Source: Hormiphora californensis (lineage: Eukaryota > Animalia > Ctenophora). From it: 64,000 nt of DNA. Below are positions 8,227 to 58,900 of this stretch, piece by piece. The stretch lies in the NCBI GenBank assembly GCA_020137815.1, contig CM035350.1:7502001-7566000 (forward strand), in the 5' to 3' direction. Each line of letters begins with the position of its first letter. Position 1 is the first letter of the stretch. The notes below the pieces were generated by a model. That model was given only the letters and a program-made list of their open reading frames with translations, did not search any database and was not told the DNA's origin. Made by a program: the position numbers and the translations under genes.

Positions 8227-19710
<11,484 letters not shown>

Positions 19711-24134: not shown

Positions 24135-27100
24135 TCAGGTAAAGAGGCTAGTGAACTTGTCAATAAGACTCTCCTCTTCAATAACGGGTGGCGGGGGTGG
24201 CTCCACTTTCTTTCTCTTCAACGCAGAGGGAATCTTGATCGGCACTTCGTAGGTGTTGGTTGCCGTTGCAGCGTTGTACCTTACCTCGGCTTCAGATGGC
24301 GCCTGTTAGGAAGGGGGTTGGGGTCATGTAGTGATGGGGTTGGTTGGGGTCAAGTAGTGATGGGGGTCATGTAGTGATGGGGTGGGGGTCAAGTAGTGAT
24401 GGGGGATTGTGCTGTTATAGTGGGAGTGGATCACACGTATTGTGGTAGCAGACATATAGCCATTTGTTACTCTTGCTAGATGCAACAGGAAGAGTTTGGA
24501 AATATCAGCACCAATCACCATTGATAGCACATGCAGATGTGGACATATATTCAGCTCCTTTTTTTAAATTTCTATTTGTCATCTCAGCATTCAGCAGAAT
24601 TAACAAGCACACATCAATCACCTATACTCCTGTGTCTCCCTGCTCATCCTTTCCCGCGGTAAGATTCTCGGTAACTTGGGTTACTGCAGTTCGCCGCTAC
24701 AGACAATCATGGCTCAATATGTTTAATGTTTTCCCAATTAGGGTAATTAAAATCATGTAGAGATGCAACAATATCATAATGAAATCAAAATGCAATCAGA
24801 TAAATATCATATTGATCAGATAAATATATCATTCAAGTTAAGCCGGCAGCTTGAAACTATTATATTTACCTGTGTTCGTTTCTTGATGACGAATATAGCC
24901 ACAACGATGAGTGCTACCACTATGATAACCACCACTATGATAACAATGGTAACGGTACTGTCACTCTCATCCTTTACCTCTTGGGCGGCTGCAGAAAGGG
25001 AAGGGTGGGTTGTAATACAGCAAGAAATGAGTTAGAAACTATAAAAAGAGTAATTATTGGAGATCGCTGAGTGGGCGAAAATGGGACAGGGATTTCGAAA
25101 TATATAATGCCCCATTTTGACAAGGTGCTGATCAGAGGTAAACACCGCTAATATAATAAAGTGTACCTACCATCACAGACAGGATCAATACCACTGCCGC
25201 AGGTGAAGGTGTCAGTGTCCGTTGCCTTGCCGTCCTCACATTTCAGTGTCACCACGGTGTCATCTGTCACCCTGAATCCAGTGGGTGGAGTGGTACTTCC
25301 ATATGTCACCTTGTAGGGAGGAATGTGTCGCGTTGCCATGGGGAAGTAATATGATTGAAGTTGCCATGGGGATCCTTGGCATTTGAGGATCATCATGGGG
25401 TATTCTCTTGCTGGGACGCCGTACCCGGGAGTACCATCCCTGGGACCGTACTCCCGTGTACAAAATAAGCTAAGTTATGGCTACCACTATTTTCATTTTG
25501 ATTTTGTTATTACAACTCACCCCAGGAACTATACAGAGGTCCATGCACTGGGTGGAAGCCGTGCTCCCCGTGCCATACGTGGTAGTGTCAGTGGGGCACG
25601 TGGTGCAGGAGGTTGAACCCGCGGTGGGGTTATACGTTCCCAGAGAGCATGCCACGCACGTGGTACCACTCACATAGTAACCAGCCGGACAGGTATCTGA
25701 GGGGGAGTGGGGTGTTACATTTTCTGAGGGGGTTTGATGTTACATTGATATTATTGGTCTAGACATTGGCGGGGGTGGAAGTGTTGTACTTACAGCAGAA
25801 TCCATCCTCGCTTGCCTGACCATCATCACAGTTAACCTTTTCTGTTGCAGTGTAGCTGTCTTGCACCGCAGTAAAGCTCACCGTAGCCCTCTTCTTAGAC
25901 CAAGTAGCCCTAAATGTAGAAGTAGAGTATTATAGTGGTCAACAAGAACCGACCGAAACAAGTAAACAACCAATCAGAACTCGTTATTTAGGTCACGTGA
26001 TTGGTTATTAGCCAATCAGGGACCAGTATTTCTTGATTCGGTCGGTTCCTGGTGGTCAAATGGTTTTTATCAGTGCCAACAACAATATTACACGGCAGTT
26101 AAAGGCCTACTAGACACCCAGATCCCAAGTAGTCTTGATCGGCTGTACCTTCACTACATTGATCTATCTGTATTTAACTTACGAGAATGATAGTTTGTTG
26201 TTATCCACCAGATCTTTAATCCTATCATCTGCAGCCCCAAGAACGCTGCTGTTGGACAGGTCAACACTCTGTATCAGAGAGTATTCCAGGGTGGTCTGGG
26301 TTCCATCAGCAGTCTTCACACATGTACCATCCTCAAACTATTGGAAGGGGAAATTGGAAAACAGTCATGGCTTGATAAAGTTGATATGTATATACATATA
26401 TGTATTATGATATAGTTAGAATTCTAGCAAAGAGTTCTGGAGTGTTGTGTACAATTTACAATGATTCACTCACCGAGCAGGTATTATCAGCGAGGCACTC
26501 CACATTGTTATCTTCCAGGGCGGTCTCTAGTGCAGCCAATACAGCTGTCTTGGAGGCTGAAGTGTCACATGTCCCCGGGCTAATCATCATTTGGGATTCA
26601 AGGGTCCTGTTCTGGGGTGTAACAGAGAGAACACAAGGCTCAAATGTACCCAGACTGTTGTCATAAGACTGGTGAGACCAAATTAGGTTGTCCTTGCAGG
26701 TCACGGTAGTCTGGGGGGTCAGAGAGGGTGAATAGGGATTCAATCAATTAGGGAAATCAGACATTACATAGCTACTTGTCTACTTACTGCAGGCTAAATG
26801 ATAGAGAATCTACTATATATATCTAGAATTGGTACCCCACCTTTTCATTTAGGTTAAGGTACCCGGAATTGCAGGACACCGTACATTCCATTCCCACCCC
26901 ACTTCCACTACAGGATATCTTCCCGTTAGAAGGCGCCTCCAGCGTGGAGCATGAACCCGCTGAGGAATGTCATCACGTGATACCCATATATGGTCATATG
27001 AGGGGAGGAATTTCGCATATAAGTTTAATTTCGATCTATCGGGAAGTCTACTGGTATTGGATACCGGGGGAAGAGCTTGGAGAAACACGGATTATATATC

Positions 27101-27721
27101 CAATATATCGAGACCCGATAAATCGAGAGTATAATTCATCATTTCGCGAGCACTTTGGTAAAGTGGTCCGAGAGACTGTGTTATGATTGGTCCACATCAC
27201 GAGCAAGGTAAGGAGATGTCGGAGAGAGAAAATAGAAAAGAGAGAATTCAAATATTATTCGGAAGACAAATTCTTTGAATTCATCTCTTGCCATTCTACT
27301 TACAGTTCTTGGTACATGTCTGTGCGTTAGTTTTCCACCCCGGGGTTGATTCTGAGCACACACGGGGGTTTGTTCCATCTAGAATGTAGCCATAATCACA
27401 GACCACTGATACTTCCTGGAATTGATAATATTGTGTGGAATCTAAGTAAGTTGAGTACATGTATCATACTAGCAGACCAACCCCAAGAAATTACACCAAA
27501 GCCCCAGAACTTGAACAGAGAGAGAGAGAGAGAGAGAAAAAAATCCAAAATATTTTCTGAAATGAACCAAATTTCGATGAAGAGTGAAGGAGGAGAAAAC
27601 TGAAAACTTCTGTGACAGTTCCTGGATTATTTAGAAAAGAGAGGGAAAAGACGTTGTGCGACGTGTCTGATTTTCTTATCACGTTGCGTTCTCTCAGCGG
27701 TAAAAACTTGTTATCTTGTAG

Positions 27722-27805
<84 letters not shown>

Positions 27806-30800
27806 GAGAGAAAGAGTGAGAAAGATAGCGAAGGAAAGTCCGTTGAAGTGACGTTATTACTTTTTTATCAGTGCGTTAGCTACCACTAGGTTGCTGAATT
27901 GAAGTGACGCTGTTGTGCGATATCATTATTCCTGGACGATTCCAGAAACCGTCCCGATATTGCTGCTCTTAGATTTTTGTTAACTTAGTTTCTCAATTCT
28001 TACTTTATGCTAACTTTTAACTTACTGCTTTACGCTTGTCCTAGGACAAGCCACATCGTTTAATCGTTTAATTAAGTACTGAAAGGGCTGAGCTCAGCCC
28101 TTTCAGTACTTAATTAAGCGATGTGGAAATTTAGTTGCCCAAAAGCCTACCTAAGGTACTCTGATCGTTTCTCGTTTCCTGTTGCTCTCGTTCTCTCAGT
28201 ACAAACACCACATTTTGTCACCTGTTTCTTCCTTTAACATTCAACAATCACTCACAGCCCTCCTCCTACTCCCCAGTGGTCTCTACACAGCTTAGATAAT
28301 GCCCAATGTGTCCCTGATAAGCTTAGAAATGGCCCATTTTCACTGAAAAAGTTTCCCGAAAATTTCGAAAAAAGTCATTTTTTGAAGTTTGCGATGCATT
28401 TTATTTCCATTTTATTTAAAAGTCCACTTTTAAAGTTGCTTGCGGAGGCCCGTACACATGGTTACCACTTCGTGACATACTTCCCGGAAGTCTCATTGCA
28501 CTCTGATCGTTTCTCGTTTCCTGTTGCTCTCGTTCTCTCAGTACAAACACCACATTTTGTCACCTGTTTCTTCCTTTAACATTCAACAATCACTCACAGC
28601 CCTCCTCCTACTCCCCAGTGGTCTCTACACAGCTTAGATAATGCCCAATGTGTCCCTGATAAGCTTAGAAATGGCCCATTTTCACTGAAAAGGTACCCGG
28701 AAAATCCCATCCGCCCACCCCCCAGCCACCCTCCCTAAATAGAGGCGTTTACTAAACAGCCCACTACAGCGACAATCCTTGTGTTTTGGTGCACTAAGTC
28801 GCTTATCGCGTGTAACAATTATCAATGATCTTATCTATGTTATCCGACTTGTCTTCTAGAACATTTCACACTCTACATTTGTACTGTCCTATGCCTTATT
28901 TGTGTTTGATTGTCTTTAATCTTAATCTCTACTGAAAATGGAAACACTTCACATCTCATCACCAACACGTCACGGTACCCATCAAATCCATCAAGGTCGT
29001 AAGTTTGTCAGTCCGTTGTTATGTACAGTTGTATCCAAATTATGATCGTAGCCATTGAGAGATTCTATTCTTATTCTTAGTTAGTATCTTTAGCTAGCGC
29101 TGTTGACAGACCGTACTCACAATGGAAAACGTTACCTTGATCCAGACCAAGTCCAAGACTTGCTACCTTGTTCCAAAACATCTCAAGACTACCACAAAGG
29201 CAAAACGTTACCTTGTTCCAGACAAAACAAACTCAAGACACTCAAAGGCAAATCGTTACCTTGTTCCAGACTAAACTAAACTCAAGACACTCTCAACGGC
29301 AAAACGTTACCCTGTTCCAGACTAAACTAAACTCAAGACACTCTCAAAGGCAAAACGTTACCTGCTCCAGCTTAATATAAACCTTAGGAATTGATTTAGG
29401 CCAGGAGTAGTGTGATACCCCTGTCGACGTCGTGCGGCTCCGGGCTCACGCCGCTCGGCGTCGCCAGTGGTTGACCACGGTCTTCCTGGAGCGTCTGAAG
29501 TAACATGCTCTGCATAAACTGATTGGTGGGTGGCCTTGCTACGGCGGAGTGGTGGACGTGCTGGGGCGCCTAATAAGCGTGCTCGGTGCGGCCGCCGCTA
29601 CTTTCGGGCAGGTCACTCGCCAGACGCAGCAAGTACAAACAAACAAACAAACAAGCCTACCTAAATGTTCTTTTTCCGAATTTAACAAAAGCTTTCCTTT
29701 GACATAAGGATTTCGTTTTAGACTTTCATTCTTCTCATATTGTGTCAATTTGAATCCCTTCTATTTCCAAAAAGCTGCTCCTCAAATAATGGCTAATGAC
29801 TATAAAATATTTTACTAGTAAATTTAACTGTCTACTAATCTAACCTACCTCATTGTCATAATATTCCTTGTCGTTAGGACTGACGTCTCCATTTGTTACA
29901 CTGTAGGAGTTGCATTCTTCGATAACCTCTGAAATCAATGTTTTTCAAACTATATACCCACTCGTATCAACCTGTTTATAGTTCTCTAGAAACACATGAG
30001 TTGCTCGATAAAGTAAAGTTCATGATCACGTACCTTCACACGTTGGAACAGCATTACTCCAGGTCCTCTTGATGCACGTTATTATCGCACTGCCTTTCAT
30101 CTTGAACCCACTGTTACATGTAAAGGTAACCCCTTCACCCATATTGAATGGTGGGGAATCACCAGTTGCCGTGCCGTTAACAATGTCCGCCAAGAGAACA
30201 CACTGGTCTGCCGGGGGAAGGGGTTAGACTTAGGTTGGGAGAGAGAAGGAGAGATTTAATAGAGAGAGAGAGAGAGATATCCATGAGACCCATCAAACGA
30301 CATCTTCCAAGCTAAACCCTATCTAGGGTTTAGCTTGGAAGATGTCGTTTGAGAGAGGTAGAGGGAGAGAGCGGCTAAATGTGAACCATATGTTCCAGTG
30401 AATTCTACTCTCCTCCAGACAGGAAATGGGTCTCATGGATAATTAAACCCATTTACCATGCATCTCACTTTCATTCTCTCTCTCTCTCGCTCTCTTTCTT
30501 TCTCTCTCTCTCTCGCTCTCTTTCTCTCTCTCTTTCTCTCCTTCTAGCTCTTTCTCCATATTTCTTTCCCCCTCTCAAAAGGATGAGAGAAAGAAAGTAA
30601 AAGAGAGCTCTCTTTTACTCTCTTTCTCTCCCCCTCTTCCTCGATCGTTCTCGCTCTTTCTTCTATTCATTAGTGGAGGGAACGGCGTAGCTTCACTCCC
30701 ACTTTCTCTCTCAGCTCCTGCAAATTTTGTATAGCCCACACAGAATGTATAGTTACCGCCACGTCGCATTGCATTGCATATAAGGTTACATATTATTCTC

Positions 30801-31677
30801 TCTCTCTCTCTGCGAGAATGTTCCTTCTTGTCATTCTATATCTTGTATTGAACATCACCCCCACGATATCTACTGCTGGTGACACGATATCTACCCCTGG
30901 TGACACGATATCTACCCCTGGTGACACGATATCTACCCCTGGTGACACGATATCTACTGCTGGTGACACGATATCTACCCCTGGTGACACCTGTCTGGAT
31001 AGTGGAGATTGTCATCATGGGACTACTCACCCAGAGGAAGACACGTGTGAAGGGTCGAGTTGTAAGCACTACACGAGAAGGGATCATCATTACTCTCCTC
31101 ATACGTCTGATCACAGGTATATGATAGAACGTAGCTGGGGTCCACTTTTGTCCCTGCTGTTTTGTTTGTAGCGCCGTAGGGAATCTGAAAGATCGAGGTG
31201 TGTCATACAATGTTACATAGGGATGGGTGGGGTAGTCATGTGACACATATATCACGTGTCTTTGAGAATCTCAAAATGATGTTGTGAGTAGCTGCTGAAT
31301 GATATTTTGAGATGTTATGTCAATCACGCGGGGGGGGGGGGGGGGGGGGTCATACACGTACGTCAGGGACAGTACAGAGGGAGTAACATTGGTCCTCCTT
31401 AGTTGATCCCTCTCCGTATGTCGTCTTCCCGCCCGTACAATCAATGCACTCCGTGGCACCCTCAGCTCCGTTGTAGCTACCGACCGGGCACGCCACACAA
31501 GTGCTATTCACCGTCTTGTACCCAGCCGGACATGTAACTGTAGAGAGAATGGGTGTTATTCCGAGTATTACAGGTGTCAAAATATCGAGTTATACTTGAT
31601 ATAATATAACAAACGTGGCATTCCAATGAATAGACTTGAACAGAGAGATGGTGTAGAGAGAAAGAGAGAGAAAGAGA

Positions 31678-31740
<63 letters not shown>

Positions 31741-33405
31741 TGAGAGAGGAACAAATAACTAGACAAGTGAGACTATACTGAGTGAGTGATGATAGTATGA
31801 CTCACCACATTGTCCATTGCTAAGCGCCTCCCCGTCCGCACACGATACTTCATCCGTCGCTTCCAAGGAGTCCTTATCCGCTGATAGTGAGGTGGCCCTC
31901 TTTCTCCTCTTTTTGTCACTAATTGACAACACAAATGTATCACTCTTCACACTCGTCTTGATCAACTTCTTCGCTGAGTTTAGTATACTCTTGTCTGTTA
32001 GATCGGCCTTCTGGTCCAGAGTGAAGACCAGCCTCGTGTCTGATTGTGATGTTCTATACCAGCAGTCGACTGTTCCTAGCTCACACTTCTTACTAACTAG
32101 ACAACCTATCGCTAGGTTGCTCGAGAGAAAGGTGCTCAGAGCCGTACTGATCTTGGTTTTCTAGATAGGGAGAGAGATGTTGGTAGAAATATACAGATGG
32201 ATTCAATGAGTAGTTAGGAACTCGGGAATTTGAAGATGGTATTTACCTCAGCATCGGTGGTGCAGTATTGGGTGAGAAGGCTGACCTTGTTTTTCATAGA
32301 CCGACCCTTTGGTTCAATGACCTCTGAAATAATATTACAGGGGTGAGTTATTTGGTGTAACGTAGTGAAGTAGAAGTTGTATTGTTCATACTATTATTTT
32401 TGCAACAGCACAAAGTAGAAGGAGTGGGAGATGGAGTAAGTTTAGTGTTGGACCAACCTGTACAGGGTGCAAACTCTCCCAGGGTGTTAGAGGCCGTCTG
32501 AGTTGACCACTGAAGTTTCTTACTGCAAATCGCCGACTGTTTATCATGGGGGGAGGGGGTGTTTATATAATGGGGGTTGGGGGTGTTACAGTATGTTGCT
32601 AACTTTTACACCCTTCGATTAATTTCTCTCTCTACTACTAAAGTTTCCTAACTATCTAGCAATCCCTTGAAGCCAACTCATTTTGAAGTATGCAGAGAAT
32701 GTTGTGTTAACTCCTTCTGCCGTGTGAAAATGTTCATTTTACTTCTCAAACTCATTCCCTGCTCCCTACTCATTTATGTTTATTCTCCCTCTCATCTTCC
32801 CGCTATAACATCTTGTCCTACTCCTCCTCCTTCAAAATCATTAAATTACCGTAACATCACTAAGGTTGACGTAGCCATCATCGCATGTTGCAGTGCAGTT
32901 GGTTCCTGCTACATTCTTGCCACTTTCCTGTCCCGAGCAAGGATACAGCCCCGTTGTCAGGGGCAGAGAGACTCACACACTCATTGTCTGGTGAGAGAGA
33001 AGAGGGTTAGTTATGGAAACTGGGAAGATATAGATTTTGGATTACTGGTGAGTGTAAAGTGTTCGTTCTCTGCACACTATCCCATGAGCCACTGACCATG
33101 GCTGACCCTTCTCATGAGTAGTGTTCCTTACCTCTCCCACGACAAGATAGTGGTTGCTACGTACCTTGTTTCTAAACTCTCCCACAAGATAGTGGTTGCT
33201 ACGTACCTTACTACCTTGTTTCTAAACTCTCCCACAAGATAGTGGTTGCTACGTACCTTGTTTCTCGCATGTGGGGGCTGATGTTTTCCATCCTGCAGTC
33301 TGGCATTTTCTTGGGGATGTTCCCTTTAGACTGTAGTCTGTATCGCAGGAGATTTTCACCACCTGTAATGCGGGAGTGAGTGTAGAGAAAATGAGGTAGG
33401 TAAGG

Positions 33406-33484
<79 letters not shown>

Positions 33485-33637
33485 CTAGCCACTAGAATGA
33501 GTGTTATCTTAGTCCTTTTGCAGTTTCCGGGAAGAAATGATATCAAGCATGTGTGTACCCAACTTCTGTGTGTTTCTAGAGCATTCAGTTCCGGCTTTAA
33601 GAACTTAATTCTCTCCCTCTCTCTATCTCTGTCTCTC

Positions 33638-33725
<88 letters not shown>

Positions 33726-33838
33726 CTAATGCTCTTTTACTCCCCCGGTGGCAGTGTGTAGGGTAAACTGCGGCTTCCGTGAGATGCTCGATCTAACGAA
33801 CAGCTGCTGCGTGGCACTCTCTCATTTTATCCTTTCTC

Positions 33839-33882
<44 letters not shown>

Positions 33883-34474
33883 CATTGGTCCTCTTTGTAA
33901 CTAACTTCTCTCCTTTATTGCTGCAAACTCAGGTGGGTCACCGTCCCCGGGGCTTTCTGTCTTGATCTTTCTCATGACTCATTTCTCTTTGGTAACCTCG
34001 CATATATAGGTAATATGACTCTGTGTTTTGGTACTACCCGCATCCTCCATATCCTTAAATCGATAGTGTTTACGCAGTGAATACAGAGTGAATACGCAGT
34101 GAATACAGAGTGAATACGCAGTGAATACAGAGTGAATACGCAGTGAATGTAGAGCGAATGCAGAGCGAATACGCAAGTAATACGCAGTGAATACGCCGTG
34201 GTTCCAGAGTGAATACGCAGTGAATGCAGAGTGAATACGCAGTGAATACGCAATCATTGGGGATATCCTACCAGAACTGTTTACGCAGTGAATACAGAGT
34301 GAATACAGAGCGAATACGCAGTGAATGCAGAGCGAATACGCAATCATTGGTAATATCCTACCAGAACTAGAATGTCGTAAATACGCAGTGATAGAAAAAT
34401 TGGACATTGTTGCTACAACCCGAAAAAAAAAGCGGTTTTGTCTCTCTATCTCTATCTCTATCTCTATCTCTATC

Positions 34475-34516
<42 letters not shown>

Positions 34517-35848
34517 ACTCATACACACTGGGCACACCATCAGCAACAATGTCCAATTTTTCTATCACTGCGTATTTACGACATTCTAGTTCTGGTAGGA
34601 TATTACCAATGATTGCGTATTCGCTCTGCATTCACTGCGTATTCACTGCGTATTCGCTCTGTATTCACTCTGTATTCACTGCGTAAACAGTTCTGGTAGG
34701 ATATCCCCAATGATTGCGTATTCACTCTGCATTCACTGCGTATTCACTCTGGAACCACGGCGTATTCACTGCGTATTACTTGCGTATTCGCTCTGCATTC
34801 GCTCTGCATTCACTGCGTATTCACTCTGTATTCACTGCGTATTCACTCTGTATTCACTGCGTAAACACTATCGATTTAAGGATATGGAGGATGCGGGTAG
34901 TACCTGTGTTTTATTCCCTGCATATCATTTTGCTAATATGATTTGATTTGAAATATGATGATGATGTTTATTAGGTCCTTGCTACATTTTACCATGACAA
35001 GTCATACTAAACAGATCCTCTCACTTCCGCTCTCTCTATCATTCGCTCTTTCCTCTCTCTTCCTCCCCACCTTTCTTCCTCTCCCGTTCTCTCTCGTTCT
35101 CCCCCATTCTCTCTCGTCCTCTCTCTTCCTCCCCACCTTTCTTCCTCTCTCGTTCTCTCTCGTTCTCTCTCGTTCTCTCTCGTTCTCTCTCGTTCTCTCT
35201 CGTCCTCTCTTATTCTCTCTATCTCTCTCCGGCTCTATCTCTCTCTTCTCTCTCTTTATCATTCTCTATCATTCTCTCTCTCTCTCTCTCCCACGGGGTT
35301 CTCACAGCAGGTGGTCGTCGTTTATTCCTTATAGAGCAGCATCATTACTCGCCACTCATTCTATGCCGCGTGTACCTCATCATTGCAGCGAGCTTGCTTT
35401 GTTCGATCGAATCCAAGCTCCATCACTTTTATTTGGTTTGGTTTGGTTTGGTTTGGTTTTATATTTGGTGTGGATAGTTACGTTTTCAAACTTACATCAT
35501 TAGTAAAGTAGGGATCCGCATTACTTAGTTTCCCGTTGGTAACCTCAAACGACCCACAGTTCGTGTTTATGGCTGGAAAAAGAAGTCACTGTCAATTCTG
35601 GCTTGAATCAATATATGCTACTTTTTCACTAACATAGATTTCAAAGAAACCAACCCCCCTTGCTTACCAACACAAGTTGCAGGTTTACTGCTCCATTTGC
35701 TTCCCTTGCACTTCAGAACAGTGTTACCACTGGATACGTAGCCACCATCACATTGCAGGGTGACCACCGATCCGGCGGTGTATTTAGCAGCCGAGCCAGA
35801 CTTAATTGAACCGTTGTCTATGGCAATATCCTTCGCATCACATGTATC
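24135..35848 (-). CDS. C-terminal half of a type-I membrane protein: 2x[CCP, CCP, CCP, spacer with basic site, GCC2-GCC3, CCP-like], TM, cytoplasmic tail (SVEP1/polydom-like modules)
   Basis: Phase-compatible GT-AG exons, e.g. 35668-35848 (DTCDAKD...KPATCV), 35496-35572 + ~33259-33362 (split CCP), ~31806-32160 (KKRRKRA), ~31364-31537 (CVACPVGSYN...C..C...KTTYGEGS), ~30034-30207 (CCP), ~25521-25697 (CVACSLGTYN), ~24870-24989 (TM: VTIVIIVVVIIVVALIVVAIFVI-KKR), last exon ~24135-24303 ending ...DKFTSLFT*. Confidence 0.85.
25943..26051. mobile_element. 109-bp hAT-like MITE (second clean copy, intronic)
   Basis: Same sequence family as 20427-20535; 8-bp target duplication gtggtcaa (25935-25942 and 26052-26059). 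Confidence 0.92.
28155..29652 (+). mobile_element. 1.5-kb non-coding retroposed element with 12-bp TSD and (CAAA)n tail
   Basis: aagcctacctaa at 28143-28154 and 29653-29664; (CAAA)n tail ~29636-29652; ~190-bp direct repeat (~28159-28350 / ~28501-28692); ~49-bp tandem repeats at ~29125-29365; GC-rich 3' part. Confidence 0.75.
30862..30989. repeat. 21-bp intronic minisatellite (CACGATATCTACCCCTGGTGA), ~6 copies
   Basis: Direct observation. Confidence 0.9.
34030..34904. mobile_element. Foldback-type non-autonomous DNA transposon (Merlin-like) with long TIRs built of short tandem repeats
   Basis: Arms ~34030-34415 and ~34542-34904 are reverse complements; termini GGTACTACCC / GGGTAGTACC; 8-bp TSD tgtgtttt (34022-34029 and 34905-34912); central (TC)n. 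Confidence 0.85.
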
Positions 35849-36037
35849 TAGAGAGGGGGATAACATTGTTAAATATTACTCCTTATGTACCTCTTGTGCA
35901 ATCTACCCCCACCAGTCACTATCCCCACTTCTATCACTCCCTTCTCTTTGTTTTGTCTGTCAGTATTGTTTATTCCCCTCCCCCACCACTCCACTGGTAT
36001 ATAATGTCTGTATAACTAACCAGAACCCCGTTACAGG

Positions 36038-42266: not shown

Positions 42267-42461
<195 letters not shown>

Positions 42462-42465
42462 AGAG

Positions 42466-42578
<113 letters not shown>

Positions 42579-43345: not shown

Positions 43346-43385
<40 letters not shown>

Positions 43386-46666: not shown

Positions 46667-46683
46667 TTAAGGTCCACATTGTT

Positions 46684-46837
46684 TATGAGGCCCCTCGGAA
46701 ATGTTCAAGTCATGCACAATCAAGTCACGCCCACCAATCACAGCTCAGAACGCGCGGAGTGCTTCACGCGTTCTGCGCTGTGATTGGTGGGCGTGACTTG
46801 ATTGTGCATGACTTGAACATTTCCGAGGGGCCTCATA
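46684..46837. mobile_element. Palindromic MITE-like element
   Basis: tatgaggcccctcggaaatg...catttccgaggggcctcata forms a near-perfect 154-bp hairpin with TA at both ends. Confidence 0.8.
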
Positions 46838-47402
46838 GGTGCATGATGGACTTTCACTCGCGAACCGGATGCGGAGTCTGAGGTATTCTATTGCTTTTAA
46901 TGGAACGCGCAAACTAGTTGGTTTATACGCTGCATTCATTTCCGGGGTCATTTTAATTTTTGCACTGCGCGCCGCGAAAATTCATCGAGCCTCGACATGA
47001 AAATTTTGCTCTCCAAAAAGTGTGCACTCTCCAAAAATCTCGCTCTACATTTTCGGACCATTTCTTTTTTCTTCCTTTTTTTTCATCCCATTATTTAATG
47101 AGAAAACCCTCTGCCACCAGGCCTCTTAACTTCCACAGCCTTTGTGTACACCGAGTTCATGAAACGTCAAACCAAACAGGGCCTTTAAAAATTAACTTTC
47201 TAAAACAGCAATCATGTCTAAAATAGGGAGACCACTGACCAGTGTTTTGACTCCTCAACAAATCAGTGTATAATACCCCATGTGACAAATAATATCGAAT
47301 GCCAAGGCCGGCATATCCGATAACATAACATGGTTCCCTACCAGCTGCCACAAACTTTGTCAGGCAAATTGATCTAACCAGTTCTTTTGTTTAGGAGCAA
47401 AT

Positions 47403-49682
47403 ATGGGTTGTGGATCGTCTCAAGTCGCTGCTGTAAGTTAACCTTACGATAAATAAGTCCATTGTTTGCTTTTTACTCAAATTACTAAAATTCCAACAAA
47501 GCAAAAGGCGATCTAACTTTAATCTCAATCTCAGGGTGCCAATGGTGGAATCTCTGACTTCCCCACAATCAAGTCTACCCACTCCCTGGTTGCTAAGCAC
47601 GTCAACAAGGAGAAATGGGACAAGCTCCACGAGCACTCTACTGCCACCTCTGGATTCACTTTGGCCAAGGCCATTGCCTGTGCTGTTGAGTTTGACAACC
47701 AGCACTGTGGAATCTACGCTGGTGACTGGGACTCCTACAAGGACTTCGCTGATGTCTTTGATCCCATCATCCAGGAGTACCATGGAATCAGTGCAGATGC
47801 CAAGCACACCTCCGACATGGACTTCAGCAAGATCACCGGAAACGTGAACCCTGATGCCCCTGTCCACTCCACCAGGATTAGGGTCGGCCGATCTATCGAT
47901 GGATTCGGTCTGTCCCCCGGAATCACCCAGGAACAGAGGCTTGGTGTTGAGAAACTGTTCTCCTCTGCCTGCAAGAAGTTCCCTGAGGAGCTCGCTGGAG
48001 AATACTACCCTCTGACTGGTATGGATGAGAAGGTCCGACAGCAGCTTGTTGACGATCATTTCCTCTTCGTATCTGGAGACAGAAATCTGACTGTCGCTGG
48101 AATGGAGCGAGACTGGCCCGAGGGTCGAGGTATCTTCCACAACAAAGAAAAGACCTTCCTTGTGTGGGTGAACGAGGAGGATCAGCTCAGGATCATCTCC
48201 ATGCAGAAGGGTGGTGATGTGCTTGGAGTCTTCAAGAGGCTTGCCCAGGGAATCAAGGCTGTCGGAGACTCCGTCAAGGAGGAATCTGGAAAGGACTTCT
48301 GTCTTGATGAGAAATACGGATACATCCACTCTTGCCCCACCAACCTGGGAACCGGAATGAGGGCTTCTGTCCACATCGACCTTCCCGGATGGACCTCTCA
48401 CGGTGTTGACAAGCTAAAGGCAAGGTGTGAGGAGCTGTCTCTGCAGCCCCGAGGAACCAGAGGAGAGTCTGGTGGCCAGACTGGCTTTACCTACGATATA
48501 TCCAACAAACATCGACTGGGATACTCTGAGGTGCAGCTGGTGCAGACCATGATTGATGGAGTAAACAAGCTCTACGAGGAGGATCTTGCATTCCAGAAGA
48601 AGTACTTTGAGTTCCCGGAAATCAAATCTACCCATTCCCTGGTTGCTAAGCACGTCACTAAGGAGCGATATGAGAAACTTGCCCGACACACTACTGCTAC
48701 CTCTGGATTCACCCTATACAAGGCCATTGCCTGTGCTGTTGAGTTTGACAACCAGCACTGCGGAATCTACGCTGGTGACTGGGACTCCTACAAGGATTTC
48801 GCTGATGTCTTTGATCCCATCATCCAGGAGTACCATGGAATCAGTGCAGATGCCAAGCACACCTCCGACATGGACTTCAGCAAGATCACCGGAAACGTGA
48901 ACCCTGATGCCCCTGTCCACTCCACCAGGATTAGGGTCGGCCGATCTATCGATGGATTCGGTCTGTCCCCCGGAATTACCAAGGAACAGAGGGTCGGAGT
49001 TGAGAAACTGTTCTCCTCTGCCTGCAAGAAGTTCCCTGAGGATCTCGCCGGAGAGTACTACCCTCTGACTGGTATGGATGAGAAGATCCGACAACAGCTT
49101 GTTGATGATCATTTCCTCTTCGTGTCTGGAGACAGAAATCTAACTGTCGCTGGAATGGAGCGAGACTGGCCCGAGGGTCGAGGTATCTTCCACAACAAAG
49201 AGAAGACCTTCCTTGTGTGGGTGAACGAGGAGGATCAGCTCAGGATCATCTCCATGGAAAAGGGTGGCGATGTTCTCGGAGTCTTCAAGAGGCTCGCTAG
49301 GGGAATCGGAGCTGTCGGAGACTCCGTCAAGGCTGAGTGCGGAAAGGACTTCTGTCTTGATGAGAAATACGGATACGTCCACTCATGCCCCACCAACCTG
49401 GGAACCGGAATGAGGGCCTCCGTCCACATCGACCTCCCCGGATGGACCGCTGAGGGAGTTGACAAGCTGAAGGCCAGGTGCGAGGAGCTGGCTCTTCAGC
49501 CCCGAGGAACCCGAGGAGAGTCTGGTGGCCAGACTGGACACACCTATGACATCTCCAACAAACATCGACTGGGATACTCTGAGGTGCAGCTGGTGCAGAC
49601 CATGATTGATGGAGTGAACAAGCTCTACGAGGAGGATCTTGCCCTCCAGAAGAAGCAGGCCGAGACCCCTGCCGCTGAATAA
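47403..49682 (+). CDS. Two-domain (contiguous dimer) arginine-kinase-type phosphagen kinase with N-terminal MGCGSS acylation leader, ~725 aa
   Basis: Exon 1 47403-47432 (MGCGSSQVAA|gtaagt), intron 47433-47534 (...aatctcag), exon 2 47535-49682 in frame with the 673-aa ORF. Two complete kinase domains joined at FQKKYFEFPEIKSTH. Confidence 0.92.
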
Positions 49683-49919
49683 ATGACAGTTGTTAGAGTA
49701 CGGTGGACGTGCATGTTTGCCTCACTTTTATCGGGTCAAGTTAGTTGGAAGGAACGGAACGTTAATTATATTGTCGTCAGTGTGTGAGTGGATAGTTTGC
49801 CTACTATGGCACCCCGTGTTTTGTACATATTAATAAGGATTGATTCGTAAACAATTCACCCGAATATATTTGATATAGCTTCTAACTAACTTTTGTTAAC
49901 CTAAGACTATCAATTTGTA

Positions 49920-52900
49920 CCTTGAACACAGGTTGGGGCGGTACTCAAGACAGCTTTTCCATTAGAAAGTGAACAACTCATAGTTTCTGAACCACTGATC
50001 GTGTAGTATTTATCACAGTTGGCCTTGTAACTCTCACCGACAGCAATTGTAGCCGTAGTAGGGGTCACCTTGGCCTTATCAATAGTAGGCTTACTGCACG
50101 TTTCACTGGTATCAGCTGAAAATATTGGGGCAAATGTTACTCCGAAAATGGCTAAGTACTATAATACCACTATTATTAGTATTGGCACAGTCCACGTCTG
50201 AGTGAGATAATCTCACTCAGACATCACAGAATTTCTCCCAAGTGTACAATCTTTTTACAAAAATTAGAGTTGCTACATAAACTAGAGCATCTCTAGTTTA
50301 TGTAGCAACTCTATTTCTGTAAAAAAGATTGTACACTTAGGAGAAATTCTGTGATGTCTGAGTGAGATTATCTCACTCAGACGTGGACTGTGCCTATTAT
50401 GACAACACAGACATCACAAAATAATTAGGATGCGGCCAGTAAAGTTAGAAAATAAGGTTTGCACTAGTGTCACATACTAGCGTTTTAGAGAAGTTTTGTT
50501 TCGGTGCACTATTTATTTAGAGTGTAGTACTGTTCTACCAAACAGGCAGAGTTTCGGTACACAATACCCGGCCCTAGGGTCTTAGTCAGCACACAAGTTA
50601 TAATTTACAAATTAAACAAATTAACAACACTGGTCAGATGGCGAACCATTGAGTCCCAGACCCCATTGAGTCCCAGACCCCGATTTGATTTTCAAATGGG
50701 AATGTGCGCTCAGATGGGGTCCACGGCGCCAGACAGATTCCCTATAGATGAGTCTTCTGATTCGAAACTATCGCACCTTCGACCCTATCGATCTGATTGC
50801 ATTGTCACTTGTCAGCAATTCAAAACGGCCTTTGGCACCATCGGACATGAGCTGGCGCCTAGCGAATCAAAATAGTTTTACCTTGGTCTTTGCAAGTCGG
50901 CGAAGTAGAAAGACTTCCGTCCGTGCAAGTGTACATACCTTCGCATGTCGGCAGGGTGGACAACACCCCATTTGTACAAGTTACGTCTTTGTTTCCGCTC
51001 AAAGTAAATCCAGTGCTGCAAGTGACAGTGTACTTGCTACCGGAGGCGATTGTTGCTGTGGTAGGGGCGACTGTACCGTCCGAAATTGTCGGCTTGTTGC
51101 AGGAATTGGCTGAAAACACGTTTTATCAAACAATTAGGCGGCATTGAAGTTGTGTCTTGTAGGCAGTATCATATCCTGGAGCAGCTTTTTAGCACTGAAC
51201 AATAACGAAGCACGAACAGACGTTCACGATTCAAGCAAACATCACAGCAAATACAAAGCAAACTAATAGTTTGTATAATTTTGCATCACAAAGCGGGGTG
51301 TTAATAAAAGTAATATCATTGATAAACATGACAAGCACAACATAAGAATATGATTTCTATATGAAAAGGATTGGAAAACATTCCATTATATTTATGCCTT
51401 TTACGTGAGCAGTGAGTGCTGGTTCGTACTTGATTTTTGCCGTACCTTCGCATGTCGGCAGGGTGGACAAGACTCCATTTGTACAAGTTACGTCTTTGCT
51501 CCCGCTCAAAGTAAATCCGGTGCTACAAGTGACAGTGTACTTGCTACCGGAGGCGATTGTTGCTGTGGTAGGGGCGACTGTACCGTCCGAAATTGTCGGC
51601 TTGTTGCAGGAGTTGGCTGAAAACACGTTTTATCAAACAATTAGGCGGCATTGAAGTTGTGTCTTGTAGGCAGCATCCTGGAGCAGCTTTTTAGCACTGA
51701 ACAATAACGAAGCACGAACAGACGTTCACGGTTCAAGCAAACATCACAGCAAATACAAAGCAAACTAATAGTTTGTATAATTTTGCATCACAAAGCGGGG
51801 TGTTAATAAAAGTAATATCATTGATAAACATGACAAGCACAACATAAGAATATGATTTCTATATGAAAAGGATTGGAAAACATTCCATTATGTTTATGCC
51901 TTTTACGTGAGCACTGAGTGCTGGTTCGTACTTGATTTTTGCCGTACCTTCGCATGTCGGCAGGGTGGACAAGACTCCATTTGTACAAGTTACGTCTTTG
52001 CTCCCGCTCAAAGTAAATCCGGTGCTGCAAGTGACAGTGTACTTGCTTCCGGAGGTGATTGTTGCTGTGGTAGGGGCGACTGTACCATCCGAAATTGTCG
52101 GCTTGTTGCATGGACTGGGATTGTTTGAGCAAGTCGGCAAAGTGGACAAGACTCCATTTGTACAAGTGACTTCTTTATTCCCGCTCAAAGTAAATCCGGT
52201 GCTGCAAGTGACAGTGTACTTGCTTCCGGAGGCGATTGTTGCTGACGTAGGGGTCACTGTACCATCCGAAATTGTCGGTTTGTTGCAGGAGTTGGCTAAA
52301 ACAAAAATTTATCAAACAATTAGGCAGCATTGAAGTTGTGTCATGTAGGCAGCAGTGAGTACTGATTTGCACTTGATTTTTGCCGTACCTTCGCATGTCG
52401 GCAGGGTGGACAAGACTCCATTTGTACAAGTGACGTCTTTGCTCCCACTCAAAGTAAATCCGGTGCTGCAAGTGACAGTGTACTTGCTACCGGAGGCGAT
52501 TTCTGCTGTGGTAGGGGCGACTGTACCGTCCGAAATTGTCGGCTTGTTGCAGGAGTTGGCTGAAAACACGTTTTATCAAACAATTAGGCGGCATTGACGT
52601 TGTGTCTTGTAGGCAGCATCCTGGAGCAGCTTTTTAGCACTGACCAATAACGAAGCACGAAAATACGTTCAAGGTTCAAGCAAACATCACAGCAAATACA
52701 AAGCTAACTAATAGTTCGTAGAATTTTGCATCACAAAGCGGGGTGTTAATAAAAGTAATATCATTGATAAACATGGCAAGCACAACATAAGAATATGATT
52801 TCTATATGAAAAGGATTGGAAAACATTCCATTATGTTTATGCCTTTTACGTGAGCACTGAGTGCTGGTTCGTACTTGATTTTTGCCGTACCTTCGCATGT

Positions 52901-55900
52901 CGGCAGGGTGGACAAGACTCCATTTGTACAAGTTACGTCTTTGCTCCCGCTCAAAGTAAATCCGGTGCTGCAAGTGACAGTGTACTTGCTTCCGGAGGTG
53001 ATTGTTGCTGTGGTAGGGGCAACTGTACCGTCCGAAATTGTCGGCTTGTTGCATGGACTGGGATTGTTTGAGCAAGTCGGCAAAGTGGACAACACCCCAT
53101 TTGTACAAGTGACGTCTTTGTTCCCGCTTAAAGTAAATCCACTACTGCAAGTGACAGTGTACTTGCTTCCGGAGGCGATTGTTGCTGTGGTAGGGGCAAC
53201 TGTACCGTCCGAAATTGTCGGCTTGTTGCAGGAGTTCGCTGAAAAAGTTATTCACTCGTTATCCGAAGGGCAAAGAGTAGACCTTTCTCATAACTTAGCA
53301 CAGCTCTAATTCGTTAAAATGTAACAGTTTGATAGAGACAAACTTTTTATGTATACCTTCGCATGTCGGCAGGGTGGACAACACCCCATTTGTACAAGTG
53401 ACGTCTTTGTTGCCGCTCAACGTAAATCCGGTGCTGCAAGTGACAGTGTACTTGCTACCGGAGGCGATTGTTGCTGTGGTAGGGGCGACTGTACCGTCCG
53501 AAATTGTCGGCTTGTTGCAGGAGTTGGCTGAAAACACGTTTTATCAAACAATTAGGCGGCATTGAAGTTGTGTCTTGTAGGCAGCATCCTGGAGCAGCTT
53601 TTTAGCACTGACCAATAACGAAGCACGAAAAGACGTTCAAGGTTCAAGCAAACATCACAGCAAATACAAAGCTAACTAATATTAATAGTTTGTATAATTT
53701 TGCATCACAAAGCGGGGTGTTAATAAAAGTAATATCATTGATAAACATGACAAGCACAACATAAGAATATGATTTCTATATGAAAAGGATTGGAAAACAT
53801 TCCATTATGTTTATGCCTTTTACGTGAGCAGTGAGTGCTGGTTCGTACTTGATTTTTGCCGTACCTTCGCATGTCGGCAGGGTGGACAAGACTCCATTTG
53901 TACAAGTTACGTCTTTGCTCCCGCTCAAAGTAAATCCGGTGCTGCAAGTGACAGTGTACTTGCTTCCGGAGGTGATTGTTGCTGTGGTAGGGGCGACAGT
54001 ACCATCCGAAATTGTCGGCTTGTTGCATGGACTGGGATTGTTTGAGCAAGTCGGCAAAGTGGACAACACCCCATTTGTACAAGTGACGTCTTTGTTCCCG
54101 CTTAAAGTAAATCCACTACTGCAAGTGACAGTGTACTTGCTTCCGGAGGCGATTGTTGCTGTGGTAGGGGCAACTGTACCGTCCGAAATTGTCGGCTTGT
54201 TGCAGGAGTTCGCTGAAAAAGTTATTCACTCGTTATCCGAAAGGCAAAGAGTAGACCTTTCTCATAACTTAGCACAGCTCTAATTCGTTAAAATGTAACA
54301 GTTTGATAGAGACAAACTTTTTATGTATACCTTCGCATGTCGGCAGGGTGGACAACACCCCATTTGTACAAGTTACGTCTTTGTTCCCGCTCAAAGTAAA
54401 TCCGGTGCTGCAAGTGACAGTGTACTTGCTTCCGGAGGCGATTGTTGCTGAGGTAGGGGCGACTGTACCGTCCGAAATTGTCGGCTTGTTGCATGGACTT
54501 GGATTGCTTGAGCAAGTCGGCAGGGTGGACAACACCCCATTTGTACAAGTGACGTCTTTGTTCCCGCTTAAAGTAAATCCACTACTGCAAGTGACAGTGT
54601 ACTTGCTTCCGGAGGCGATTGTTGCTGTGGTAGGGGCGACTGTACCGTCCGAAATTGTCGGCTTGTTGCAGGAGTTCGCTGAAAAAGTTATTCACTCGTT
54701 ATCCGAAGGGCAAAGAGTAGACCTTTCTCCTAACTTAGCACAGCTGTAATTCGTTAAAATGTAACAGTTTGATAGAGACAAACTTTTTATGTATACCTTC
54801 GCATGTCGGCAGGGTGGACAACACCCCATTTGTACAAGTGACGTCTTTGTTCCCGCTCAAAGTAAATCCAGTGCTGCAAGTGACAGTGTACTTGCTTCCA
54901 GAGGTGATTGTTGCTGTGGTAGGGGCGACTGTACCGTCCGAAATTGTCGGCTTGTTGCAGGAGTTTGCTGAAAACACAAATTTATCAAACAATTAGGCAG
55001 CATTGAAGTTGTTTCATGTAGGCAGCATCCTGGAGCAGCTTTTTGTACTGAACAATAACGAAGCACGAAAAGACATGTATATGGCGATATATAATGTACG
55101 ATAGTTTCAAATCCATTCAAGCGAACATTACATGAAATTCAAAGCAAACAAAGGGTTTATGGGATTATACATCACAATCACAGCACAATGCGGGGTGTCA
55201 ATGAAATATAATAGCATTCTTTATCATCATGAGAAGCACAACACAAGGTATAATGATTTTTATTTGAAAAGTATTTGAAAATATTCCATTATGTTTATGA
55301 TTTTTACGAGAGCAGTGAGTGCTGAATGCTGATTCGCACTTGATTTTTGCCGTACCTTCGCATGTCGGTAGGGTGGACAAGACTCCATTTGTACAAGTGA
55401 CGTCTTTGTTGCCGCTCAAAGTAAATCCGGTGCTGCAAGTGACAGTGTACTTGCTTCCGGAGGCGATTGTTGCTGTGGTAGGGGCAACTGTACCATCCGA
55501 AATTGTCGGCTTGTTGCAGGAGTTGGCTAAAAACACAATTTCATCAAAAAAATTAGGTGGCATTGAAGTTGTGTCATGAAGGCAGCATCCTAGCCTGGAG
55601 CAGCTTTTTAGCACTGAGCAATAACGAAGCACGAAATTAAGTTAATTATATGGCGATATAGATTGATTTCAAATCCATTCAAGCGAATATTATATCAAAT
55701 AAAAAGAATTTTACGGCACATAGAGGGATGTCAATACCTAAAATAGTATGTAAATGATCACTATGACAAGCACAGCACTAGTACAACATAACTTTGTATG
55801 AAAAATATTAAAACATTTAATTCCGCCGTGTTTATGCTTTTTACGAGGGCAGTGAGTGCTGATTCGCACTCGATTTGTGCTGTACCTTCGCATGTCGGTA

Positions 55901-58900
55901 GGGTGGACAAGACTCCATTTGTACAAGTGACGTCTTTGCTCCCGCTCAAAGTAAATCCACTACTGCAAGTGACAGTGTACTTGCTACCGGAGGTGATTGT
56001 TGCTGTGGTAGGGGCAACTGTACCATCCGAAATTGTCGGCTTGTTGCACGTTTTTGCCGATCCTGAAGAGGAAATATTTAGTTCCACGCTTATAGCGACT
56101 CCCTTATTATATAAAATGATACCACATGGTTCAGATACCTCCGGTGCAAGTTGGAATTTCTGCACTCCACTTTCCACCGGCACAAGTCAAGGTAGAAGCC
56201 CCGCTCAGGGTATATCCGTCGTCACATTTTGGAGTTGCTGTTGTGCCTTCGGTTATCTTTTCCCTGTCAAAGGTTATATCTCCATCCTCCATGGCAGTAC
56301 TTATATCGAAGCAAGTAACTGAAATACAGGTTGATGGTTACAATTATTAGGGCCCAGTTACAAATTTGAATCCTGATATCAGGATCCTGATGGCTCCTGA
56401 CCACCCCCTATACTAACAATTGATGCGACGCAACTCTCTACTTATCTCACATGGAAAGTTAAGCCGCGGAACCGCTTCACGTGGATTAGCATTGGGAATC
56501 TGCCATCAGATATGATGGCAGATTTCAGGACTGATTGCAGATTCCAGTTTGTAACTGGGGTGTAATACGTAATGAAGTGGTGTAACAAGTTCTTTGTATT
56601 CATACCTGCTCGACTACACATTCCTCTGGCTACGTATGTTTCGGAACTTTTAGTGTACCATTTACCCGTATTCTTGTCGATCATACCCCAATTTTTGGTT
56701 TGACTCCCGTCTGTGAAATTCAAGTAACCGTTGGCGGTGAACCCATCAATCCAACTATATCCATTAGTTGAGTCGTACCTGCGAGGTTTTATTGTCCATG
56801 AATATGTTTTGAGCTGATAATGAAATCTTTGAAGCCGGATCGAAAGTTAGTTTTGCTGCCGCCAACTTACAATAGACCCATCCAGAATAAGTTAAACTTA
56901 TCGTCTCCTTTCACTCCAGGGATTTGATTATTTGCCTTTGTGGCAACCTGAGGAAAATATTTTTAGCACATGCAATTTGTATCTGTATGATCATAATTTG
57001 AGTTTGATTAGAATCCCAGACAAACCCAGGCCAACTATAAGAAAACTCACTATACTATTATGATAAAGTGTTGGAATGACAGCAAGATCCCATCCTGTCT
57101 TTCCAGTTGTATCCATCGCCTTACAAGAAGCTTGACACACCGCACGAGTTCCCGTTTTGATGTCATTGCAAAACTCATATTCCATCTCTGGGAACAAGAA
57201 CAATATGCAATGATAAATCAATAGCAGGCATAACACTTGCCTAGTTTGCACCCGTCCCTTCATCGCTGCTTCATGCTTGTACCAAAGAATTGAAGAAGGT
57301 TCGGGTACAAACTAGAGAAAGTAACACTGGCAATGAAGGTAAGAAATTAATTGCAAGTATTCAATTTTATACCTCGGTTATAGTCTACACGGACTGAGTA
57401 AGCGTTTTTAAAAAAGTTACAACTCGACAGCGCTGATGTGTCACGGTTGTATCTAACATAGCCATCTTCTCCCCAGCCCGAGCCGTAGCTCCCCCTGACG
57501 CGAATGTATGTTTCCGTATATCCAACAACAGCCATAGCGTGAGAAAGTGCCTCAGAAGAACAGGTAGTATCCGTGAACAAGCCTAAGGATAATAATGAAT
57601 GATAATAGAATTTATCTAGAAGTGCTAATTATCACTAATTATATTTTGACATCTCGCAGTTGTCCAAAAAATGTCGAACTTACGGGCAATGCTCCTGCAG
57701 TCTCTTACCTCCAGAGTAGGACATTAGTTTCGTGCTGATAAGGGAAATGAATGCCACGGGAGAACTCTGAAGACCAGTTAGCATGGCATCTTCTGTGTTC
57801 GCTAGCCGCACATAATTCTGGAACCAAATTTTGGGAATGCCATTATCCTTCCGCTCTGCTATGTCTGTATCATACTTGCATACGGTATCTGAAATCATTC
57901 AATGTTGACATGACAGCGTAGGGCAAATCTAATTTGACGCTTTACCGCGTTTCATGTTTCAATGAGCTGTGACTGATAGCAACACCGGTTTGTCTGACAA
58001 TAAGTTACATTGTCATACTCACACATCCCGAAGTAAGGAAATTTAGCGGTTGTCATAGCATATTGGCGGACTCTGGTAACTTTAAATCCATCGTTTGCAG
58101 TACCGCCGCCACACCCATCTCCCTCTAAAGCACAGTCAATGAAGTATTGCTCCGACAAGTTGATTTCTTCACCGGTGTACTTCTTGTATAATGTCTCCAT
58201 AGCTAACGTCTGTGGGAGCAGAGAAGGGTTTAGATCCACCCGCAAATGTAAAGTAGCTGGAGGGTTAGAATATAACAAAAAAATACATGGAATTTGAATT
58301 TTGGACATACTGTAGGAAAACTCCAACAGGAGCCACAACTAAGTTGGTCCTTAACCGCAACCATTCCCAAGTCTTCCCACTCTGTAAATGTTGTAGGAAT
58401 AGACCGCTTGTGACGTCTAGGTGCTAGAGCTATGCCATCAAGACCACTTTCTCCAAGTTCAGGAATGGTCTTGTTACTGAGAAATTTAGCGTGAGCCTTG
58501 GCATACTCCTTGATATTCTGAAATAATTAACGTTGAGGATTTTCTATTCTTTCGGATAATAGGCAAAAGCTAATTGATATAGTGCTGGAGCTGATTAAAG
58601 AAAATCTGTGTACCATGACTGAAAATCGGTTCAGACTTTCCAGAAATACGCCATGTGTTGTAGCTTCTACATCAGCCTTGGCTTGTAGCAACCTCTCCCA
58701 TCTTTCACTGAAACACAGTTGAGATAGTATCGTGTTTTTAAAGAATGCTGTTTAAAAACTCACATTTTGTCTTGTTCGCTGGACGGCGTGATACCCCATC
58801 GATTTAAAGTATTCTGAAATAGCTCTGAGGCGGGGAGTGTGACTGAACTGAGTGCTAAATAAGGGAGCAACGTCAGTAGGAAAAGCCATTCATGGGCCAT
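49920..58900 (-). CDS. N-terminal half: signal peptide, propeptide, papain-family (C1A) cysteine protease, C-type lectin domain, 17 CCP/Sushi domains
   Basis: ATG 58900 MAHEWLFLLTLLPYLALS; propeptide ERWERL...LNRFS; RRHKR; VKDQLSCGSCWSF (~58312-58355); LSEQYFIDC...GCGGG; HAMAVVGY; GWGEDGY; CTL-like exons ~57050-57189, ~56870-56948 (FWMGL), ~56607-56778 (YSWIDG...GKW...GMCS); CCP exons from ~56319 down to 49920. Confidence 0.88.
50184..50394. mobile_element. 211-bp palindromic MITE with apparent 4-bp TSD
   Basis: ggcacagtccacgtctgagtgag...ctcactcagacgtggactgtgcc; TATT on both sides (50180-50183 and 50395-50398). Confidence 0.8.
50939..56063 (-). repeat. Tandem exon+intron array encoding 15 near-identical CCP domains in 11 phase-1 exons
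   Basis: Repeated CNKPTISDGTVAPTTATIASGSKYTVTCSTGFTLSG(N/S)KDVTCTNGVLSTLPTC: seven single and four double (CSNNPSPC-type linker) exons. Introns are duplicated too (~0.5-kb and ~0.95-kb periods). Confidence 0.93.

Follow-up and report, generated by a model that had tools for sequence, protein, structure and literature searches.

The 64,000-nucleotide stretch of the genome of the ctenophore Hormiphora californensis analyzed here (contig CM035350.1; hereafter the window) contains a minus-strand gene predicted to place a papain-family (C1A) cysteine protease at the tip of a long, membrane-anchored stalk of complement control protein (CCP) domains. The order of the product is signal peptide, propeptide, C1A protease, C-type-lectin-like domain (CTLD), about 20 CCPs, two CCP/spacer/GCC modules, a transmembrane helix and a cytoplasmic tail. 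A preliminary description of this DNA had proposed this type I membrane layout, in which a CCP stalk carries a C1A protease at its tip; the layout is supported. We tentatively read the product as a type I surface protease that would be activated by furin, could be shed and would serve, most likely, in extracellular digestion in the pharynx. Of the steps in this reading, digestion has the least support, and its link to the gene is circumstantial.

Gene model

Forty-three minus-strand exons, running from 58900 to 24135, were joined into one model rebuilt from the sequence. All 42 introns begin with GT and end with AG, and exon phases are compatible throughout except at a single +1 indel near 32940, in exon 26; with this exception, the exons, phases and domain order proposed earlier were borne out. 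The predicted product has about 2,459 amino acids (with an X at the exon-26 break) and two hydrophobic segments, one at the N-terminus and one in exon 41. In single-exon Pfam queries (39, of which 31 came from this gene), exons 3, 4 and 6 matched Peptidase_C1, exons 30 and 39 matched Ephrin_rec_like, and those CCP exons that were queried matched Sushi. Of two junctions named earlier, 49920/35848 was recovered as an intron of 14,073 nt, whereas 56778/56319 was not the passage from CTLD to CCP, which lies at 56606/56318; position 56778 is the start of exon 9. An ATTAAA motif lies at 23979, beyond the tail exons. The features of the gene, with the evidence for each, are as follows.

58764..58900 (-): exon 1, start codon, signal peptide (hydrophobic peak at residue 6) and start of propeptide; N-terminus matches both long relatives
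58311..58707 (-): exons 2-3, family-specific propeptide, RRHKR (58418-58404), start of mature protease, catalytic Cys (58328-58326); Pfam, R-x-K-R in both relatives
57373..58209 (-): exons 4-6, C1A protease, His at 57541-57539, Gly in place of Asn175 at 57493-57491; Pfam, introns 4, 5 and 6 skipped in X1 contigs (see below)
56606..57187 (-): exons 7-9, divergent CTLD without Ca2+/sugar motifs; family profile, intron 8 skipped in an X1 contig
56139..56318 (-): exon 10, first CCP, common to short family members; Pfam, homolog comparison
50939..56062 (-): exons 11-21, 15 near-identical CCP units; repeat comparison
49921..50115 (-): exon 22, CCP 17, donor of the long intron; Pfam, relatives
35848..49920 (-): intron of 14,073 nt with opposite-strand arginine-kinase-like open reading frames (ORFs), a reverse transcriptase (RT) fragment and a 21-bp tandem array; ORF and Pfam scans
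33257..35847 (-): exons 23-25, CCPs 18 and 19; Pfam, relatives, CCP profile
32458..32987 (-): exons 26-27, short atypical CCP, +1 frameshift near 32940; relatives
31806..32323 (-): exons 28-29, spacer 1 (alpha/beta) with RRKR at 31908-31897; relatives, structure model
31031..31537 (-): exons 30-31, GCC2/GCC3 (Ephrin_rec_like) repeat and degenerate CCP; Pfam, relatives
25794..30207 (-): exons 32-38, two CCPs, a short CCP and spacer 2 with conserved KKR; Pfam, relatives
25171..25696 (-): exons 39-40, second GCC repeat and degenerate CCP; Pfam, relatives
24870..24988 (-): exon 41, transmembrane helix and basic stop-transfer residues; hydropathy 3.96, relatives
24135..24696 (-): exons 42-43, cytoplasmic tail, N-x-Y-[ED] motif and stop; the least certain exons, with no blastp match in the relatives

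Full-length relatives and the one-gene question

When exon 6 served as the query of a HMMER scan, the best 150 of 446 matches included 12 proteins that also match the CTLD of the model. These 12, several of them partial, run from signal peptide through propeptide, C1A protease and CTLD to CCP, and end after at most two CCPs; the named members of this short family are ctenophores, a Pleurobrachia bachei protein among them. Word-based searches with single protease exons found no family member. An alignment of the 12 proteins was then searched against proteins of 1113-3175 amino acids, and two of the 23 matches combine Peptidase_C1, Sushi and Ephrin_rec_like. One is Mnemiopsis leidyi KAL5262342.1 (1,849 amino acids, locus ACHWQZ_G007910, "hypothetical protein"); the other is RefSeq XP_063675082.1 (1,834 amino acids), presumably from Bolinopsis microptera and automatically named sushi, vWF type A, EGF and pentraxin domain-containing protein 1-like (SVEP1-like). 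Both database names ignore the protease.

The two long relatives keep the same order from end to end, with 46-47% identity over 582-584 N-terminal and 1013-1019 C-terminal columns, and share the domain order, both basic sites, the catalytic residues, the transmembrane helix and the tail motif with the gene described here. They differ from it in having four near-identical stalk repeats instead of 15 and Ala instead of Gly at the Asn175 position. By blastp, 41 of the 43 exons match each relative, the two tail exons being those that do not; a few short or repeated exons find their best match in a paralogous module. The gene models of the relatives agree with the window model, which was built independently of them. 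A shorter M. leidyi protein, G008512 (444 amino acids), is a near copy of the front of the long gene. The three long proteins do not form one group in a 20-row tree of the protease domain, some of whose "short" rows are incomplete: the long form takes three changes, and 0% of bootstraps give one. Long and short forms would therefore have interconverted, or swapped protease domains, more than once.

Among the other C1A matches, P0073 (681 amino acids) has the order C1A-CCP-kringle and P0090 (543 amino acids) C1A-EGF. The P0007 cluster comprises a family member of 555 amino acids, carried on contigs that range from 93 kb to 2.3 Mb, and is possibly an intronless copy.

The 14-kb intron between exons 22 and 23 raises the question of whether two genes have been joined. 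We conclude that the exons form one gene, because both full-length relatives run across the exon 22/23 junction, which is contiguous in them by global alignment; the same colinearity leaves the two-gene alternative strongly disfavored. The relatives also give no exon-like match within the long intron, save to the tandem array, that would mark a second gene start. Only two signal-peptide-like starts occur there, both antisense to the kinase ORFs.

The intron holds three arginine-kinase-like ORFs on the opposite strand, all intronless and 90-95% identical to one another in DNA. The third has two domains, and in the first a single base is inserted near 36177. An HSP70 gene was considered for this region and rejected, the ORFs being phosphagen kinases. 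Nested genes are common in ctenophores, and 2,357 have been counted in 1,654 hosts in Hormiphora (PMC8527503). The features of the intron, and a second RT ORF outside it, are as follows; one of the two RT ORFs is a fragment.

36038-37100, 40708-41769 and 47523-49679 (+): arginine-kinase-like intronless ORFs
37419-39170: tandem array, 21 bp x 83, with long open frames
44850-45800 (-): RT ORF of a LINE-like element
60289-61749 (+): second RT ORF of a LINE-like element

The protease and its propeptide

Homology and the catalytic dyad place the predicted protein in the C1A family, with a non-canonical third residue. Peptidase_C1 exceeds the Pfam cut-off on exons 4 and 6, and the two long relatives score 98-101 bits. 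Gln19, Cys25 and His159 (papain numbering) are kept: the model and each of the 15 family rows that extend over the site (16 rows in all) have the catalytic Cys, and the His is unchanged across a 12-row family alignment. In the predicted structure of family member P0002 the mean predicted local distance difference test score (pLDDT) is 62, higher in the protease and below 50 in much of the CTLD, and its protease domain matches papain and cathepsin L with E near 1e-15.

In an alignment to papain, Asn175 corresponds to Gly in the gene described here and Trp177 to Tyr. Among 17 database rows the Asn175 position is Gly in six, Ala in five and Asn in five by pattern, with one row missed by the pattern being Asn in the alignment; the Gly/Ala replacement is found also in family members that lack the anchor. 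Asn175 of papain is important yet non-essential (PMC8244254), and for this reason its lack was not used to exclude membership of C1A. The earlier assignment to C1A holds for fold, family homology and Gln/Cys/His, and is qualified by the changes at Asn175 and Trp177.

The propeptide is conserved within the family and is followed by R-x-K-R in all three long proteins. Propeptides of the I29 type carry ERFNIN/GNFD motifs, which mark the cathepsin L-like lineage. Pfam found no I29 match in the exons, the family proteins or the two long relatives, and a family profile of the propeptide searched against 167 other proteins gave a best E of 0.08, compared with 7 for a reversed control, a faintly I29-like signal.

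A lectin-like domain without sugar-binding motifs

Exons 7-9 gave no Pfam match when queried singly, and Pfam likewise fails to detect a CTLD in both long relatives. A profile built from eight homolog stretches and the three window exons retrieves 60 PDB sequences at E up to 1, headed by mannose-receptor-family and other CTLD proteins, with best E values of 1e-14 for multi-domain chains and 1e-4 for single domains. Lectin_C also exceeds the Pfam cut-off in family member P0034 and appears more weakly in four other members. The EPN/QPD and WND motifs mediate Ca2+-dependent sugar binding in C-type lectins. None of EPN, QPD and WND was found in the CTLD of the model or in seven of eight homolog rows scanned, one row having QPN; in the eighth row, none of the three is present in the alignment. 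By homology the domain is a CTLD, not a canonical sugar-binding lectin, and the earlier term "glycan-targeted" is unsupported for a CTLD lacking these motifs.

A recently expanded stalk

A custom CCP profile finds 19 clear CCPs ahead of the first spacer and 23 matches overall; one further short, atypical unit in exons 26-27 is not scored by it. Fifteen of the units are near-identical repeats. Among them the ratio of non-synonymous to synonymous polymorphism (pN/pS) is 0.13, with 24 synonymous and 7 non-synonymous minor codons (P=1.6e-9), and variable sites number 5/3/22 at codon positions 1/2/3. The array is a recent tandem expansion, and the substitution patterns mark it as coding and under purifying selection. 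These patterns, and the colinearity of two other proteins with the entire model, speak against a chance arrangement. Near-identical stalk repeats number four in both long relatives and two to four among six Mnemiopsis isoforms, and the long relatives have eight clear CCPs ahead of the first spacer. A stalk of about 20 CCPs, as first described, therefore holds for this species but not as a general trait. With each CCP about 3.5 nm long, the stalk would measure roughly 65-70 nm here and about 30 nm in the relatives.

Reading through the intron after exon 10 meets a stop two codons on, and a read-through stop also follows exon 22. The near-identical units start 76 nt past exon 10, and there is therefore little room for a separate gene start. 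Behind exon 21 lies a degenerate half-CCP remnant (50860-50938, -), in frame and ending in a GT donor, which may be an alternative exon end.

Spacers, tail and the exon-26 frameshift

In each of the three long proteins spacer 1 carries R-x-K-R; spacer 2 has a conserved KKR. The conserved basic site in spacer 1 suggests that the head can be cut from its anchor. The SEA fold was considered as a candidate for the spacers: a structure model has a pLDDT of 41, an Atlas cluster of SEA domains scores 0.79, and in a structure comparison a SEA chain stands at rank 46 (Z 4.9, root-mean-square deviation 3.2, 90 residues aligned). An N-x-Y-[ED] motif is present in all five tails examined, including two alternative tails that both long relatives possess.

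In exon 26 the two frames on either side of the indel each align to the matching part of the long relatives. Because the downstream exons are intact and a nearby arginine-kinase copy, 3.2 kb from the indel, has a one-base insertion too, an assembly error is the likeliest explanation. The alternatives are a null allele or the skipping of exons 26-27, whose omission preserves the frame and yields 2,386 amino acids.

Transcript evidence

Two sequencing runs, X1 and X2, were compared as contigs with positions 53300-59300; X1 is a seawater RNA-Seq library whose content is presumed to be RNA. Contigs of X1 skip introns 4, 5, 6 and 8 at the predicted ends. The 333-nt contig over intron 6 splices protease and CTLD together, with 212 nt lying on one side of the junction and 121 nt on the other. 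Three differences are listed for this contig, all outside the Gly codon that takes the place of Asn175. With 14 differences in exon 5, one X1 record may derive from a paralog or a relative. In X2, a 2,051-nt contig matches the signal-peptide exon and the start of the CTLD 943 nt apart (about 950 in the model), the matches being only 23 and 33 nt long. Neither run has contigs over the CCP exons in 53300-56500, which counts neither for nor against those exons.

Comparison with known architectures

Like papain and cathepsin L, the product has a Peptidase_C1 domain with Gln, Cys and His, a signal peptide and a propeptide; unlike them it has a long C-terminal extension with a transmembrane helix, a basic activation site, changes at Asn175 and Trp177, and a propeptide not recognized as I29. 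A 2023 survey of the papain family describes eight ancestral and two younger lineages, none of them similar to this gene, and its main text has no occurrence of "ctenophor" or "sushi" (PMC10380794). Several of its multidomain lineages (type 1 long C1, vWFA-C1, 26/29 kDa, and cathepsins F and O) also fuse C1A to extra domains, and type 1 long C1 has a transmembrane segment, but at the N-terminus (residues 32-53) and in a lineage absent from animals (PMC10380794). A papain-like protease is joined to a lectin-like domain in Clostridium difficile Cwp84, which is associated with the surface layer, and in fungal MOA chimerolectins (PMC10380794; PMC8244254). These proteins lack a CCP stalk and a transmembrane helix and are analogues only. 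Their lectin folds also differ from the CTLD.

SVEP1/polydom is secreted, has vWA, EGF, pentraxin and HYR domains, and contains no protease. It shares CCP and GCC2/GCC3 repeats with the gene described here, which has both a transmembrane helix and a protease; Pfam finds no vWA, EGF, pentraxin or HYR match in either long relative. In selectins an N-terminal, sugar-binding CTLD is followed by EGF. They share the order CTLD, CCP stalk and transmembrane helix with our gene, which differs in lacking EGF and sugar-binding motifs and in having a protease in front and GCC modules behind. On domain content, the predicted product is neither SVEP1 nor a selectin. SVEP1 does have a furin site too (PMC13722417).

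The preliminary description had called the architecture undescribed. Our literature search, conducted mostly at the level of titles and abstracts and outside subscription papers, found no published description of it, nor of an animal papain-family protease with a C-terminal membrane anchor; however, the architecture already stands in NCBI under other names, in two other species and not widely. The CTLD legend of a paper on Mnemiopsis immune domains includes no papain domain, in line with Pfam missing this CTLD, and the supplement has no match to the Mnemiopsis locus numbers or to PF00112 (PMC11797021).

Proposed function and alternatives

In the reading that we tentatively prefer, a proprotein convertase would remove the propeptide in the secretory pathway, so that activation would be independent of the lysosome, and the stalk would hold the enzyme tens of nanometers off the membrane. 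The CTLD would act as a protein-binding or structural exosite and not as a calcium-dependent sugar binder; cleavage in spacer 1 would free the head or leave a two-chain form, and the shorter, anchor-less paralogs would be soluble partners. Ctenophores digest prey in a gland-rich pharynx whose juice is acidic, and pharyngeal juice of Pleurobrachia has cathepsin-like proteolytic activity from proteases that "have not been identified" (PMC6733828); for these reasons we favor extracellular digestion. A broader proposal is doubtful at present: that ctenophores built their own extracellular proteolysis from a lysosomal-type enzyme by furin activation, a remodeled active site, and soluble and variable-stalk membrane forms, and that this enzyme is the pharyngeal cysteine protease.

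Several points weigh against the digestive surface protease. The pharyngeal activity was called cathepsin B-like (PMC6733828), whereas the nearest solved structures of our protease are of the papain/cathepsin L type, and ordinary cathepsins could account for that activity. With Gly or Ala at Asn175 and Tyr at Trp177 in all three long proteins, activity may be low. Read support is limited to four of 42 introns, within exons 1-9 and by one contig each; the frame as assembled stops at 1,614 amino acids, ahead of the anchor; and both long relatives are database gene models.

The same active surface protease might instead serve epithelial defense, clipping surface proteins of microbes or parasites at the mucus or on phagocytes. 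We consider this unlikely: CTLD and CCP domains are common in candidate immune receptors of ctenophores (PMC11797021), repeat number changes fast (15 here, four in the relatives, two to four in Mnemiopsis isoforms), and the three positions of the long form in the protease tree fit repeated duplication or conversion, but selection on the stalk copies is purifying rather than diversifying, and the CTLD lacks sugar-binding motifs. A surface protease for tentacle or colloblast adhesion, turnover of adhesive, matrix remodeling or wound healing is quite unlikely. The CCP/spacer/GCC module does resemble matrix and adhesion proteins such as SVEP1. Sushi is over-represented among colloblast candidates, and three C1A proteins are among the Mnemiopsis colloblast and tentacle candidates, but these three entries (320-529 amino acids) show no Sushi or lectin rows and, being given without sequence in the supplement, cannot be linked to the family (PMC6278862).

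Ranked below adhesion, and also improbable, is a weak or dead protease in a receptor or adhesion molecule that would bind ligands through its papain cleft and signal by its tail tyrosine. The altered Asn175 and Trp177 positions in three of three long proteins and the N-x-Y-[ED] kept in five of five tails would fit such a receptor; yet the protein retains Gln19, Cys25 and His159 as well as the propeptide with its cleavage site, and the Gly/Ala change is common to anchor-less family members. We regard as very improbable that the anchored form is not made in this species, either because the frameshift is real or because transcripts end after exon 10 or 22, leaving a secreted protease only. The +1 indel near 32940, the read-through stops behind exons 10 and 22, and the ending of most family members found after one or two CCPs would agree with it. 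However, the downstream exons are all intact and 46% identical to the relatives, the one-base insertion 3.2 kb away in the arginine-kinase copy is as expected from assembly error, skipping of exons 26-27 keeps the frame, and the region past exon 22 has no A[AT]TAAA within 920 nt.

Other features of the window

A ferlin-like multi-exon gene with C2, FerI and DysF/Pex24p matches occupies about 8500-19700 (-). At 20418-21831 (+), two ORFs overlap in different frames, the second with HEAT repeats, and are possibly one gene with an intron or indel; a 24-bp x 22 tandem array with long open frames follows at 21827-22355. Upstream of the protease gene, a Cys-rich ORF at 63195-63632 (-) has two weak CCP-like units with no Pfam Sushi match and may belong to a neighboring gene.

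Implications

A conserved ctenophore example adds a lineage unmentioned in the main text of the 2023 papain survey (PMC10380794), and it provides a natural papain subfamily without Asn175 as well as flagging a database misnomer, SVEP1-like. The family also offers named, cloneable candidates for the pharyngeal proteases and bears on the question of a separate origin of ctenophore extracellular digestion by co-option of lysosomal enzymes. Proteolysis at animal cell surfaces is normally performed by serine and metalloproteases. If our reading is true, ctenophores would have an animal cell-surface cathepsin in the role played elsewhere by brush-border and membrane serine or metalloproteases.

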